Sequence record: AJ512679.1
DNA: 1,716 nt
Source of the DNA: Enterobacteria phage P2-EC45
Strand: one strand, 5' to 3'
In this document: piece after piece, positions 1 through 1,716 of the stretch
Layout of the letters: each line of letters opens with the position of its first letter
How positions within the stretch are numbered: position 1 is the first letter of the stretch
Notes under the pieces: generated by a model
Seen by the model: the letters and a program-made list of their open reading frames with translations, nothing else
The model's database searches: none
Told to the model about the DNA's origin: nothing
Translations under genes and position numbers: made by a program

Positions 1-30
1 AATCCTGAATGGCCGGAAATGCCGCAATGA
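1..30 (+). CDS. 3' end of a phage tail fiber assembly protein (Tfa family, P2 gpG-like); partial, gene continues upstream of the window
   Basis: Reading frame from position 1 translates NPEWPEMPQ then TGA (28-30). A C-terminal EWPxxP-type ending is what I recall for Tfa-family proteins (lambda Tfa ends ...PDIEWPAVPVME, from memory). GC is core-like, and the gene sits upstream of a tail sheath gene as in P2. Confidence 0.55.
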   Translation, partial: NPEWPEMPQ

Positions 31-173
31 GTTTTATGAGCTTACATATCTATAGCACAAAGTAAAACCTAATCTGACAGTTCGCTCTGTGCTAGGAGCG
101 GACGTAACACATATCGCATTGGGTTGAAGAATGGTTACCACGTTGTGAAAACCACAGTAAAGATTACATGATA

Positions 174-197
174 TTGTCAACAATTTCTTGTTATAGT
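174..197 (+). promoter_or_regulatory. Candidate sigma70 promoter for the cargo ORF: -35-like TTGTCA (174-179) and extended -10 TGtTATAGT (189-197)
   Basis: TATAGT matches TATAAT at 5 of 6 positions and is preceded by TGn. The spacing to TTGTCA is only 12 bp, so the -35 assignment is doubtful. The location is about 60 nt upstream of the ORF1 start. Motif inspection only. Confidence 0.3.
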
Positions 198-246
198 ACA
201 TGCTCACAAACGTAGGTCTAAAAATTAAAACTCAAGCAATGCTATT

Positions 247-250
247 AGGA
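247..250 (+). promoter_or_regulatory. Shine-Dalgarno (AGGA) for the ORF starting at 259
   Basis: AGGA lies 8 nt upstream of ATG 259, and an in-frame TAG (256-258) sits immediately before the ATG, so 259 is the first possible start. Confidence 0.55.
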
Positions 251-258
251 ATAGATAG

Positions 259-771
259 ATGCTAAGCAAAAAAGAAAAAACAGACAAGACAGAAACTAAT
301 TCGGATAAAAAAATAGGTGTCAAAGATAAAGTAAACTGGCTTTTGTGTGGAACTATTCTGATCATGATTGCGTCATTCTGTCTTTATTTATATAAATTCC
401 ATTCACCTTTATCTAACAATCATACAAAGTGGGGAGAGTTTGGCTCATATTTTGGTGGTGTCACCGGCCCATTAGTAAGTGTAATGGCATTTATCGGACT
501 GCTCAAATCAATTAGTTTGACAAAAAAACAATTTGAAATACAAAGTCAAGAGAGTACTTTCTTTAATCTACTTACCTTTCATACTTCTAAAGTTACAAAA
601 ATATATTCTGAGACATATGGGGAGACTGATGCCTTTAAATATCTCTGTGCAAAATATAATGAAGTATATGAGTCTAGATGCATTGCCATAGCATTGGATG
701 GTATTGCAAGAAATCAACAAAACTTGCCAGAATATACGTACTATAATTTCATAAGGTATTTTTTGCCTTAG
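259..771 (+). CDS. Membrane-anchored N-terminal half of a candidate abortive-infection-like defense protein (170 aa as written; probably residues 1-169 of a ~344-aa product)
   Basis: ATG with a good SD. The N-terminus is Lys-rich (positive-inside). There are two hydrophobic segments, about residues 27-45 (WLLCGTILIMIASFCLYLY) and 61-85 (FGSYFGGVTGPLVSVMAFIGLL), predicting an N-in/C-in helical hairpin. The ORF is AT-rich and sits in a prophage cargo position. It ends at TAG 769-771, within or just after a T6G slippery tract. Confidence 0.6.
   Translation: MLSKKEKTDKTETNSDKKIGVKDKVNWLLCGTILIMIASFCLYLYKFHSPLSNNHTKWGEFGSYFGGVTGPLVSVMAFIGLLKSISLTKKQFEIQSQESTFFNLLTFHTSKVTKIYSETYGETDAFKYLCAKYNEVYESRCIAIALDGIARNQQNLPEYTYYNFIRYFLP
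759..765 (+). other. In-phase X_XXY_YYZ slippery heptamer T_TTT_TTG: candidate -1 frameshift site, or site of a 1-nt homopolymer indel
   Basis: ORF1 codons are taT (757-759), TTT (760-762) and TTG (763-765). The ORF2 reading frame is open from 747 and is the -1 frame relative to ORF1. A -1 slip here, or restoring a seventh T, gives one continuous 344-codon ORF ending at 1292. Confidence 0.45.
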
Positions 772-779
772 ATGATAAC

Positions 780-1292
780 GTGACTGTCAAAGAGATAAAA
801 TCACGGTATTCACAATATCTGGAAGAATTTGATAATAAGCAGTCAATTCTCAACGAAATAAACTTAAAGAGAAGGAATATTAAAGATCATGGTAAATTCA
901 TATTGATTGAAATAGGCCGTGATCTGGTAAGGGATATGAGTGCTGAAGAGAGAGTCAAGGTTTTAAGAAATACGTTTGATGGGTTTTATGACGAATTAGG
1001 GCATGTGTCAGGCTCATATATTAGAAATATTTACTATATACTTTCTCATGCGAATGAGTCTATTAATGGTGATAAATATGCAAAAATATTTAGAGCTCAG
1101 TTATCTCGTTATGAATTGGTCATAATTTTTCTAAATATGTTAAGTAGTTACTGCAAGCCGGACTTTGTTTACCTCATCAAGAAATTTGATATATTAAATG
1201 GACTATATATTAATGATCTATGTTACAATCCAACTAGCGAAATGTATAAAGATGATCTTAAAGATATTTACCTACATTCAGATGAAGTGTAA
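780..1292 (+). CDS. C-terminal soluble half of the same candidate defense protein (drawn as a separate 170-aa ORF; its frame is open from 747)
   Basis: The start is GTG with no recognisable SD within 20 nt. It begins 8 nt after the ORF1 stop, in the -1 frame. It has no hydrophobic segments, shares the AT-rich composition of ORF1, and ends in three consecutive stops, TAA TAA TAG (1290-1298). Confidence 0.55.
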   Translation: MTVKEIKSRYSQYLEEFDNKQSILNEINLKRRNIKDHGKFILIEIGRDLVRDMSAEERVKVLRNTFDGFYDELGHVSGSYIRNIYYILSHANESINGDKYAKIFRAQLSRYELVIIFLNMLSSYCKPDFVYLIKKFDILNGLYINDLCYNPTSEMYKDDLKDIYLHSDEV

Positions 1293-1299
1293 TAATAGG

Positions 1300-1338
1300 A
1301 ACACTCTTACTGAGTTTTTTCAGTGTTGTGTAATTTTT
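1300..1338 (+). terminator. Weak candidate intrinsic terminator after the cargo ORF
   Basis: Imperfect palindrome: AACACT (1300-1305) pairs with AGTGTT (1322-1327), or alternatively ACTGA (1309-1313) with TCAGT (1320-1324). A T5 run follows at 1334-1338. The stem is AT-rich and short, so this is marginal. Confidence 0.2.
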
Positions 1339-1396
1339 ACGCACAAGGTTTTGTTGCTTAAAAAATAAATAATACAGGATTGGTTAATGCTATTTT

Positions 1397-1426
1397 TGTC
1401 CGGCAACATGAATTGTTTGCTGGACA
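1397..1426. repeat. 10-bp inverted repeat with 10-nt spacer (TGTCCGGCAA ... TTGCTGGACA)
   Basis: Positions 1397-1406 pair with 1417-1426 at 9 of 10 Watson-Crick positions plus one G-T. No T-tract follows on either strand, so this is more likely a protein-binding dyad or RNA structure than a terminator. Confidence 0.4.
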
Positions 1427-1544
1427 GAAAGCATAAAATAAAGTACGTCACTATCTTTTCAATCAATTTTTTATTAATCCCATAAGCTCGGTAATAGTTT
1501 TTAATTTCTACAATCCGTATTTAACCTACTACTTTTGAACAGGT

Positions 1545-1557
1545 TGCAATAATTGCA
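1545..1557. repeat. Perfect 6-1-6 palindrome TGCAAT-A-ATTGCA
   Basis: Read directly from the sequence. It sits at the transition from AT-rich cargo to GC-normal core DNA, about 130 bp upstream of the FI start. Confidence 0.4.
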
Positions 1558-1565
1558 TGGACAGT

Positions 1566-1586
1566 CGGGCGAATTGCCCGCCTTTT
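1566..1586 (+). terminator. Candidate rho-independent terminator: GC stem CGGGC/GCCCG, loop GAATT, then CC-TTTT
   Basis: A 5-bp all-GC stem (1566-1570 with 1576-1580) and 5-nt loop are followed by TTTT (1583-1586). The stem is short and the T-tract is only 4 long. The element could instead belong to the FI promoter region. Confidence 0.3.
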
Positions 1587-1674
1587 CTGTATCTGTTGTT
1601 TCATCCACTGACCAGCCAGGTCAAATAGCGTCTCATGCACTGCCCAACAGAAAATAGTTGCACCCATTAACCAC

Positions 1675-1678
1675 GGAG
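1675..1678 (+). promoter_or_regulatory. Shine-Dalgarno (GGAG) for FI
   Basis: GGAG lies 8 nt upstream of ATG 1687. Confidence 0.6.
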
Positions 1679-1686
1679 TTAAACGG

Positions 1687-1716
1687 ATGAGTGACTATCA
1701 TCACGGCGTGCAGGTG
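1687..1716 (+). CDS. FI: 5' end of the phage tail sheath protein gene (P2 gpFI-like); partial, continues past the window end
   Basis: The translation MSDYHHGVQV matches the N-terminus I recall for P2-family tail sheath protein FI. It has a good SD and GC-normal composition. Confidence 0.75.
   Translation, partial: MSDYHHGVQV

Follow-up and report, generated by a model that had tools for sequence, protein, structure and literature searches.

Gene content of the window

The window analysed here, a stretch of 1,716 nucleotides from Enterobacteria phage P2-EC45 (AJ512679.1), is the interval that separates two late operons in a P2-like prophage, the V operon with G as its last gene and the F operon, which begins at the promoter PF before FI. 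This gap is the Z/fun position, and the following features were assigned within it:

1..30, + strand: gpG (tail fibre assembly), its last nine codons and a TGA stop; identical to P2 gpG and annotated as 'tail fiber assembly protein' in strain A5
31..103, + strand: conserved left flank after G, from the alignment; lacks 12 nt that directly follow the stop in P2 and P2-EC67
79..103, + strand: AGTTCGCTCTGTGCTAGGAGCGGAC, an imperfect palindrome that marks the left junction and belongs to what AJ512685 annotates as the 'left inverted repeat'
104..1556, + strand: foreign low-GC cassette (the cargo), delimited by composition, BLASTN to loci L006 and L008, absence from 76 other intervals and presence in 2 of 5,426 E. 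coli genomes
168..197, + strand: promoter-like ATGATA-18-TATAGT with a TG (extended -10) upstream of the cargo gene, matched to the consensus
247..250, + strand: AGGA resembling a Shine-Dalgarno sequence, 8 nt ahead of the ATG at 259, read from the sequence
259..771, + strand: ORF1, 170 aa, N-terminal half of the cargo gene (Lys-rich tail, two predicted membrane helices, long stalk helix), ended early by a frameshift
759..764, + strand: run of six T's (T6), the frameshift site; the intact allele has T7 here, and a single further contig has T8
780..1292, + strand: ORF2, 170 aa from a GTG, C-terminal half with a putAbiC domain at about nt 1011-1217; continuous with ORF1 in the 344-aa protein of A5
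1485..1562, - strand: HEPN_Toprim_N-family gene relic covering the last ~26 codons, with an internal stop (tblastn, 65% identity)
1557..1686, + strand: conserved right flank, from the alignment, with a terminator-like hairpin, the late promoter PF and its activator site, and the FI ribosome-binding site
1566..1583, + strand: terminator-like CGGGCGAATTGCCCG followed by a T run, the sole such site in the window, kept in P2 and P2-EC67
1594..1620, + strand: site corresponding to the one bound by the activator (Ogr) at P2 pF, TGT (1597-1599)-N12-CCA (1612-1614), aligned to the site in NC_001895
1687..1716, + strand: first ten codons of gpFI (tail sheath), with GGAG ahead at 1675-1678; assigned by identity with P2 and by A5

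The last nine codons of gpG (NPEWPEMPQ, positions 1-27, with the stop at 28-30) match the P2 gpG C-terminus (DPANPEWPEMPQ followed by the stop) in 9 of 9 residues, and MSDYHHGVQV, encoded by 1687-1716, agrees with the start of P2 gpFI in all 10. The first-pass annotation had read the window as opening on the end of a tail fiber assembly gene and closing on the start of FI, and these protein-identical ends identify both as orthologues of P2 G and FI. The comparison of the flanks with P2 by BLASTN that it had proposed upholds this homology, with 79% identity over 1-103 (E 2e-24) and 80% over 1569-1716 (E 1e-32); positions 1561-1716 are moreover 97% identical (BLASTN) to the 'proviral Z-region' record of P2-EC67. 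In strain A5, whose copy differs from the window by one base, the gene order is H-G-cargo-FI-FII-E-T-U-D-ogr, so that G and FI are adjacent P2-type late genes in this near-identical copy and their non-adjacency is excluded there. The P2 reference record (NC_001895) places fun(Z) between G and FI and annotates it as nonessential and as blocking T5 when cloned, in agreement with the statement that these two genes flank a nonessential Z/fun locus. The identity of the locus is confirmed, with evidence that lies far beyond chance.

Downstream of the cargo, the sequences of the late promoter PF and its Ogr/activator site are retained, as an alignment with the site and the transcription start annotated in P2 indicates, and the pattern TGT-N12-(A/C)CA recurs in 76 of the 77 G-FI intervals compared below. 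The number of promoter-like sites in the window does not exceed that in shuffled sequences. The site at 168-197 resembles in its layout the promoter annotated in the P2-EC67 record, and L006 has TATAAT at the position equivalent to TATAGT. An Rfam scan of the window returned a single chance-level snoRNA match and nothing else.

The palindrome at 79-103 is common to the P2 backbone and to non-P2 donors of the cassette, and its 5' arm and loop are more conserved than its 3' arm. An RNA hairpin at this site is at most a tentative reading: pairing is kept in 27 to 37 of the 37 unique variants per pair with one compensatory change only. The motif at the left junction reads AGTCCGCTCTGTGCCARRAGCGGAC. 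The right inverted repeat that P2 (about 90 nt) and P2-EC67 have in common is absent from the window, where the right junction lies inside the gene relic; of the two inverted repeats that enclose the cargo in the annotation of P2-EC67, the window has only the left one (79-103). The missing right repeat bears on the proposed mode of insertion and not on the identity of the locus.

Conserved flanks and exchanged cargo

We compared 77 G-FI intervals, i.e. those of 75 IMG/VR P2-like contigs, the window and P2. The left flank (73 nt after G) aligned in all 76 comparisons with a median identity of 89%, and so did the right flank (130 nt before FI; median 96%), which started at window position 1559-1560 in 69 of them. 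The window interior, in turn, matched none of the 76 other intervals, and the 77 interiors, with sizes of 1,061-6,126 bp, represent 40 unrelated low-GC cargo classes. This alignment, which the first-pass annotation had suggested as a check, substantiates its claim that P2-like prophages swap foreign genes at this position. Complete E. coli genomes give the same picture: megablast located the flanks in 1,655 of 5,426 genomes, always under the annotations 'tail fiber assembly protein' and 'phage tail sheath protein', while the whole window was present in only 2, which argues against an insert that is core sequence of P2-like phages. The interior alone (106-1556) had a close match only in those same 2 genomes, besides 5 genomes with 70% identity in another genomic context.

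Many of the cargos at this position had been presumed to be anti-phage systems. A domain survey of the other cargo, covering a set of 72 ORFs, agrees with this presumption in that defence domains occur in several classes (DarT, Macro, AbiGi, ABC-3C, TIR_2, the Cap15 receptor, the reverse transcriptase domain RVT_1, RES, Mrr_cat, LmuB of Lamassu and an OLD-like ATPase-Toprim), and so does the literature, where the fun locus is described as the second defence-enriched hotspot of P2, with three validated systems (Vassallo et al. 2022, PMC9519451). PADLOC run on seven alternative cargo proteins, fun(Z) included, gave zero matches, and an AbiC-like gene was found at the hotspot in none of 120 IMG/VR P2-like loci. 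The other P2 hotspot, gpA-gpQ, is the subject of Rousset et al. 2022, which does not cover the G-FI locus, and the tail-gene hotspot of P2 is treated in a 2026 preprint (10.64898/2026.02.27.708500), according to which defence pseudogenes are rare in P2. The term 'AbiC' is absent from the texts of PMC9519451 and of this preprint; the window thus differs from the hotspot as described there by carrying an AbiC-type cargo and, given the rarity of pseudogenes, a broken copy would be an uncommon case. Since both the hotspot and the gene family have already been described (Vassallo 2022; GenBank "Z-region" records), the finding as such is an ordinary one. It confirms that a phage hotspot already known can be recognised in raw sequence when a window includes about 30 bases of it on either side.

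The P2 fun(Z) locus itself (NC_001895 15675-17261) resembles the window in its G-FI slot, its nonessential character, its low GC content, its flanks and its PF promoter, but encodes an unrelated 528-aa protein on the opposite strand and keeps the right inverted repeat that the window lacks. The sister record of P2-EC67 (AJ512685) likewise combines flanks as in the window with a different cargo, which has its own promoter. We infer that foreign DNA would be tolerated in the gap because the stretch that leads from the 3' end of G to the terminator hairpin and the Ogr-dependent PF appears to contain nothing essential, and cargo may be exchanged by recombination within the conserved flanks.

The split cargo gene and its T run

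The cassette, 1.45 kb at 31% GC (interior GC 0.28-0.36), carries a single gene in late-gene orientation with a promoter-like site of its own. The product of ORF1 is identical to CAD54899.1 of phage P2-EC45, deposited with the 'proviral Z-region' (Nilsson and Haggard-Ljungquist), down to the frameshift-specific end ...RYFLP. In strains A5 and SW07099 the coding sequence is intact and specifies 344 aa, the sole difference being T7 instead of T6, and the A5 allele equals the window over all 1,716 bases apart from this T run. As read from these alleles, the loss of one T from a T7 run splits a single gene into two ORFs of 170 aa each, and the frameshifted copy, as written, is probably inactive.

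One could also take ORF1 and ORF2 as two genuine genes forming a two-component system, as both are open, equal in length and 8 nt apart, and one of them was deposited as a protein. We give this reading next to no credence: with one T added they become the 344-aa protein that many contigs encode, the homologues are without exception single proteins of ~340 aa spanning both halves, and the GTG start of ORF2 is not preceded by a Shine-Dalgarno sequence. Conserved split homologues with their own start signals in several lineages were looked for and none was found.

A more serious competitor to a split gene in the phage itself is an error in the deposited record, i.e. a miscounted T run, in which case the real P2-EC45 prophage has an intact, potentially active 344-aa gene. 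We hold this to be a real possibility, to be rated somewhat below even chances. It fits with the T run being the only difference from the intact A5 allele and with the occurrence of the T6-specific ORF1 product only as GenBank/UniRef CAD54899.1 and on no assembled contig, whereas at least 62 contigs encode the intact protein. Homopolymers are notoriously prone to read errors; six or seven T's, on the other hand, are normally read correctly by Sanger sequencing. Against an error speak also a T8 variant in an independent assembly, which is otherwise identical to the window over 1,619 shared nt, and a more distant homologue in strain 18AR0366 that is likewise broken, by a 1-nt deletion. Unless these two are errors as well, they indicate that real inactivation of such genes happens. 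Should the frameshift be real, the window would be a rare case of a P2 defence gene that is broken.

The three tract lengths (T6, T7 and T8) in otherwise identical DNA could alternatively reflect a slippage switch, by which a costly abortive-infection gene would be turned on and off, with some leak from T6 through -1 slippage on T_TTT_TTG (759-765). This heptamer fits the X_XXY_YYZ pattern, a -1 shift would read ...RYFLALDDNV, one residue off the intact protein, and the T7 tract is kept in homologues of 83-88% identity. The gene is, however, AT-rich and contains three runs of 7 (A7, A7 and T7), so that two length variants would fall on one and the same tract by chance in about 1 in 3 cases, and more distant homologues do not have the tract. 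No stimulatory RNA structure was detected downstream (z -1.27). Both length variants may be read or assembly errors, at 2 broken alleles against more than 80 intact contigs, and by the standards of phase variation a tract of 7 is short. Programmed frameshifting is disfavoured by the lack of a downstream RNA structure, and phase variation by a tract that two other runs match in length and that is unconserved in distant homologues; such a switch appears very unlikely. Were it true, defence cargo of a prophage would be silenced reversibly instead of only being swapped out. The frameshift of the cargo gene, like the prior documentation of locus and sequence, is a point that goes beyond the first-pass annotation.

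Protein family, possible function and origin of the cassette

The expectation that whatever sits at this position is a defence candidate gains support from a match to the Pfam family putAbiC (PF16872). The intact protein scores 46.1 bits over residues 252-320 and ORF2 alone 48 bits, at a Pfam gathering cut-off of 22, and the same domain is present in 29 of 29 homologues, all of ~340 aa. With PADLOC, the full-length protein had no match at E <= 1, just as fun(Z) is missed, and its C-terminal half reached E 0.0045 against the AbiC model; among 26 family members, 11 match AbiP (best E 4e-8) and 2 match AbiC (5e-4). A profile of the family retrieved 8,612 cluster representatives (50% identity) at E <= 0.001, the best-scoring ones mostly being of similar length.

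In the hydropathy profile, two hydrophobic windows peak near residues 36 and 76, the N-tail contains 8 K/R, and the AlphaFold2 model (pLDDT 82.6) is all-helical with helices at 21-47 and 55-118. The predicted architecture is that of a Lys-rich cytoplasmic N-tail, a two-helix membrane hairpin with a conserved short loop, and a cytoplasmic all-helical domain whose invariant core reads G-x-Y-x-R-N...K-x-F-R-A-Q-L-S-x-x-E. W58, R256, N257, Q281 and E286 are among the residues that do not vary. A profile search against PDB sequences gave no match, and Foldseek against viral models gave nothing at E <= 0.001.

We therefore propose the cargo as a candidate member of the AbiC/AbiP group of anti-phage proteins, judging by profile matches. 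Like the lactococcal proteins of the 'AbiC/P' group (FEMS Microbiol Rev 2026, PMC13064643), it combines an N-terminal membrane anchor (two helices in AbiC) with an all-helical extramembrane domain, and in both cases these are single-gene systems on mobile elements with no fold match to known enzymes. The lactococcal genes, however, are found on a plasmid and the present one in an enterobacterial prophage, and the likeness is seen through profile models and descriptions. Searches with tblastn of plasmids and phages, using the window protein and its relative closest to AbiP, recovered no lactococcal AbiC or AbiP, and among the entries that a profile search retrieved from a large protein collection none bore the name AbiC or AbiP, so that the link is one of profile models and family names. 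A full-text literature search for PF16872 or putAbiC yielded no paper.

The depositors labelled the protein a 'putative lysogenic conversion protein', and one may accordingly think of a membrane protein unrelated to defence that alters, for example, the envelope or transport. Such a role would suit a protein that is small and membrane-anchored and has neither an enzymatic domain nor a structural match, PHROG 8999 is labelled 'unknown function', and some Yersinia homologues lie among ordinary chromosomal genes (LysE, an acetyltransferase, an MFS transporter). We nevertheless judge this improbable, in view of the above-threshold score to a Pfam family named after AbiC, the PADLOC AbiP matches of its relatives, the defence-enriched position, and the homologues that repeatedly adjoin mobile elements and defence genes, the latter including SIR2/deaminase, type I restriction-modification, DarT, AbiGi, BrxC/BrxD and HEPN-Toprim genes. 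In the old annotation of P2-EC45 neither the split AbiC/AbiP gene nor the HEPN-Toprim relic was recognised, and its "lysogenic conversion" ORF can now be re-annotated as half of an AbiC/AbiP-family gene.

For an intact protein of the AbiC/AbiP group, abortive infection by a single protein would be the most likely mode of action, by analogy with AbiP, AbiC and PdpSau. AbiC, which has two membrane helices, lowers capsid protein production (PMC13064643), and AbiP is triggered by the major tail protein of the phage (PMC12184496). Abortive infection is also reported (PMC10127798) for PdpSau, an AbiP-like, membrane-anchored accessory protein of Staphylococcus aureus prophages; as described there it is set apart from the window protein by a single membrane helix and a positively charged domain with an OB-fold-like region. 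The cytoplasmic domain could respond to a structural protein or a nucleic acid that the phage makes late in infection, upon which the membrane-anchored protein would collapse membrane energetics or block late protein production, and cell death would come before phage release. The large family (~8,600 representatives) has here an enterobacterial branch whose full-length protein escapes PADLOC.

The cassette also points to its own history. Positions 79-1556 are 88.9% identical at the DNA level (BLASTN) to L006, a non-P2, integrase-borne island. In L006 to L009 the HEPN-Toprim gene of which the window retains a relic is the convergent neighbour of the AbiC-like gene, and the DNA homology reaches 1556. 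As far as these alignments indicate, the cassette derives from, or has a common ancestor with, an island that pairs an AbiC-like gene with a convergent HEPN-Toprim gene. Taken together, we consider it highly probable that the window represents the Z/fun hotspot with an exchanged cargo, that this cargo is a frameshifted gene of the AbiC/AbiP group with abortive infection as its presumed function, and that the cassette is related to such an island. The cassette is a clean example of DNA that a P2 hotspot has in common with a non-P2 island; one of its junctions coincides with a short motif present in both, and the other falls within a gene relic.

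The G-FI slot and its variable cargo

The first 27 nucleotides of the window encode NPEWPEMPQ, with a stop codon at 28-30, and positions 1687-1716 encode MSDYHHGVQV; residue for residue, these match the end of P2 gpG and the start of P2 gpFI, respectively. The first-pass annotation, which saw the last codons of a tail fibre assembly gene at the window start, the first ten codons of tail sheath gene FI at its end and the nonessential Z/fun locus of P2 as the region flanked by these genes, was therefore right on all three points. The P2 reference record places fun(Z) between the tail fibre assembly gene G and the tail sheath gene FI, annotates it as a nonessential gene that blocks T5 when cloned, and marks a pF activator site and transcription start immediately upstream of FI. 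By megablast, the window ends were found in 1,655 of 5,426 complete E. coli genomes, the annotation at these matches always being 'tail fiber assembly protein' and 'phage tail sheath protein'. Of the 5,426, just two, A5 and SW07099, contain the whole window (99.9% identity). In A5 the cargo lies within a full set of P2-type late genes (H, G, cargo, FI, FII, E, T, U, D, ogr). E. coli ET881 carries, at the same chromosomal site adjoining ogrK and yegQ, a decayed P2-like remnant in which portal, G and FI are pseudogenes and the G-FI slot is kept with two other hypothetical genes.

Features of the window
up to about 103: conserved left flank, by sequence alignment
between the flanks: cargo, 1.45 kb, about 31% GC
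168-197: promoter-like extended -10 site upstream of the cargo gene
247-250: AGGA upstream of the cargo gene
259-771: ORF1, 170 aa, in a different frame from ORF2
780-1292: ORF2, 170 aa, in a different frame from ORF1
from about 1557: conserved right flank, by sequence alignment
1566-1583: terminator-like site, the only one in the window
1597-1614: TGT-N12-CCA, counterpart of the P2 activator site by alignment to P2
within the right flank: region aligning with the P2 transcription start
upstream of the FI start codon: GGAG

Promoter-like sites are no more numerous in the window than in shuffled sequence. No terminator-like site was found between G and the cargo, which would make read-through from the V operon into the cargo during lytic growth plausible.

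To align the locus across P2-like prophages, as the first-pass annotation had proposed, 120 IMG/VR contigs were retrieved via a 16-nt left-flank anchor string; 75 of them hold both the G end and the FI start and, together with the window and P2, gave 77 intervals of 1,061-6,126 bp. Grouped at ≥80% identity over ≥70% of both sequences, their interiors fall into 40 classes, all with a GC content of 0.31-0.45, and the window cargo is a singleton class. The first 73 nt 3' of G and the last 130 nt 5' of FI align in all 76 other intervals (median identity 89% and 96%, respectively), the right-flank alignment beginning at window 1559-1560 in 69 of them, and the window interior matches none of the 76. 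Among 72 cargo ORFs from the 39 classes other than that of the window, Pfam matches include DarT, Macro, AbiGi, ABC-3C components, TIR_2, a Cap15 receptor domain, reverse transcriptase, RES, RelA_SpoT, Mrr_cat and SMC/AAA ATPases, and PADLOC matches include the ATPase-Toprim, LmuB, AriA, PtuA and GajA models. Annotated slot contents in E. coli comprise a DUF6615 protein, two small hypothetical proteins, larger hypothetical proteins and an invertible tail-fibre segment with a recombinase. The statement in the first-pass annotation that P2-like prophages carry differing foreign genes here, many of them anti-phage, is thus correct, and agrees with the description of the fun locus as a second defence-enriched P2 hotspot with three validated systems (Vassallo et al. 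2022, PMC9519451) and with a 2026 preprint that also lists a hotspot inside the P2 tail genes (10.64898/2026.02.27.708500). The P2 hotspot treated by Rousset et al. 2022 is the other one, located from gpA to gpQ. In the A5 prophage that site, flanked by replication gene A and the portal gene (L001:2091-5378, outside the window), holds a PP2C phosphatase and two Ser/Thr kinases, which may be a second defence-type cargo.

Locus, variability, defence enrichment and window sequence are already on record; the present analysis adds counts for the hotspot (77 intervals, 40 cargo classes), recognises the P2-EC45 ORF as one half of an AbiC/AbiP-family gene split by a frameshift, and identifies a relic of the donor island at the right junction.

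A split AbiC/AbiP-like gene

The window and A5 differ at one of 1,716 bases, in a T run that is T6 in the window (759-764) and T7 in A5 (L001:20759-20765), where a single CDS (L001:20259-21290) encodes 344 aa annotated as 'putative phage abortive infection protein'. This sole difference indicates that ORF1 and ORF2 are one gene split by a -1 frameshift. The T6-specific ORF1 product has the C-terminus ...RYFLP and is the same protein as CAD54899.1, named 'putative lysogenic conversion protein [Enterobacteria phage P2-EC45]'; the window thus either is or exactly matches a sequence that was deposited two decades ago. A sister record, the 'proviral Z-region' of P2-EC67, has the same flanks, with inverted repeats and a promoter annotated around a different ORF.

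At least 62 contigs carry the intact protein, and more carry close variants. T6 could quite possibly be a read error instead of a real mutation. An independent Logan assembly (ERR13910449) has T8 (L013:795-802) and is otherwise identical to the window along the 1,619 nt that the two share. In E. coli 18AR0366, a homologue with 63% identity to the cargo protein (L005:8881-9905), located in a SIR2/deaminase island adjoining a P4-like satellite, is split by a different 1-nt deletion outside any homopolymer. T6, T7 and T8 in otherwise identical DNA would suit an on/off switch, but the tract is one of three runs of seven in the gene (A7, A7, T7) and T7 is not kept in distant homologues; likewise, T_TTT_TTG, present in the T6 allele, has the pattern of a -1 slippery heptamer, as a programmed frameshift site would, but no RNA structure was found downstream of it. 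Both readings are therefore unlikely.

The 344-aa product of the restored frame and ORF2 on its own score 46-48 bits against PF16872 (putAbiC; cut-off 22), a domain found in 29/29 homologues, all of about 340 aa. Searching with a profile built from 26 homologues yielded 8,612 cluster representatives at E ≤ 0.001, of which 2,826 also reach E ≤ 1e-10; most of the top-scoring ones are of similar length to the cargo protein. Hydropathy places two membrane-type segments near residues 36 and 76, with invariant W58, F61 and G62 in a short loop between these hydrophobic helices; since the N-tail has eight K/R, the positive-inside rule predicts both termini to be cytoplasmic. Further invariant residues lie in the C-terminal domain (G252, Y254, R256, N257, Y260, F278, A280, Q281, S283, E286). 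In the all-helical AlphaFold2 model (pLDDT 82.6), helix 55-118 links the membrane to the soluble domain. Against PADLOC v2 the full-length intact protein has no match at E ≤ 1, its C-terminal half matches AbiC (E 0.0045), and 11 of 26 family members match AbiP in the same C-terminal region (best E 4e-8); in PADLOC-based hotspot surveys the cargo would count as 'unknown'. We provisionally place the protein in the AbiC/P group on the basis of its Pfam score and architecture.

Proposed function

AbiC lowers major capsid protein production and does not block DNA replication (PMC13064643), a phage major tail protein triggers AbiP toxicity (PMC12184496), and abortive infection is reported for PdpSau, an AbiP-like prophage protein (PMC10127798). 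In the best-supported model, the intact allele would be a single-protein abortive system. Its sensor domain, cytoplasmic but anchored at the inner membrane, would react to a product made late in phage infection and would then compromise either the membrane or late expression. That the allele is anti-phage at all we slightly favour; any particular step is considerably less probable. A defence role is supported by the neighbours of homologues: SIR2/deaminase/NTPase genes, type I restriction-modification with DarT, a P4-like satellite, AbiGi, BrxC/BrxD with a DEAD helicase, and HEPN-Toprim with radical SAM genes. Relatives occur on at least 50 viral contigs; at the G-FI slot, 0 of 120 P2-like loci examined had an AbiC-like relative. 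The intact A5 allele is a reasonable and cheap candidate for experimental testing.

Cassette junctions

The left edge of the variable region coincides exactly with a 25-nt imperfect palindrome (GTCCGCT-N10-AGCGGAC, window 79-103), which is kept in 81/120 P2-like IMG/VR loci and is common to the P2 backbone, donor islands and another E. coli island border. In non-P2 islands it lies upstream of the AbiC-like gene. Copies are at L006:5821-5845 (a metagenomic island), L004:4249-4273, about L010:655-680 and in L018-L023. Pantoea, Leclercia, Yersinia and Enterobacter have it at six further sites outside P2, with neither G nor FI within the 8-kb stretch examined. The palindrome may act as a recombination site, may be a stretch of homology common to these sequences, or may fold as an RNA hairpin, for which the pairing statistics were not decisive. 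On the left, the window lacks 12 nt present directly 3' of the G stop in P2 and P2-EC67 (window 31-40); on the right (about 1460-1556) it lacks the ~90-nt 'right inverted repeat' that both have 5' of the terminator hairpin.

Window 79-1556 has 88.9% DNA identity to a non-P2, integrase-borne island (L006-L009), and window 70-1295 has 87% to a Morganella locus. In L006 a convergent HEPN_Toprim_N gene lies 3' of the AbiC-like gene. The cassette tail looks non-coding, yet its minus strand at 1485-1562 still encodes about 26 residues from the C-terminus of that HEPN_Toprim_N-family protein (65% identity), interrupted by a stop. This gene relic points to an illegitimate break inside a gene as the right junction, exactly where the P2 flank resumes.
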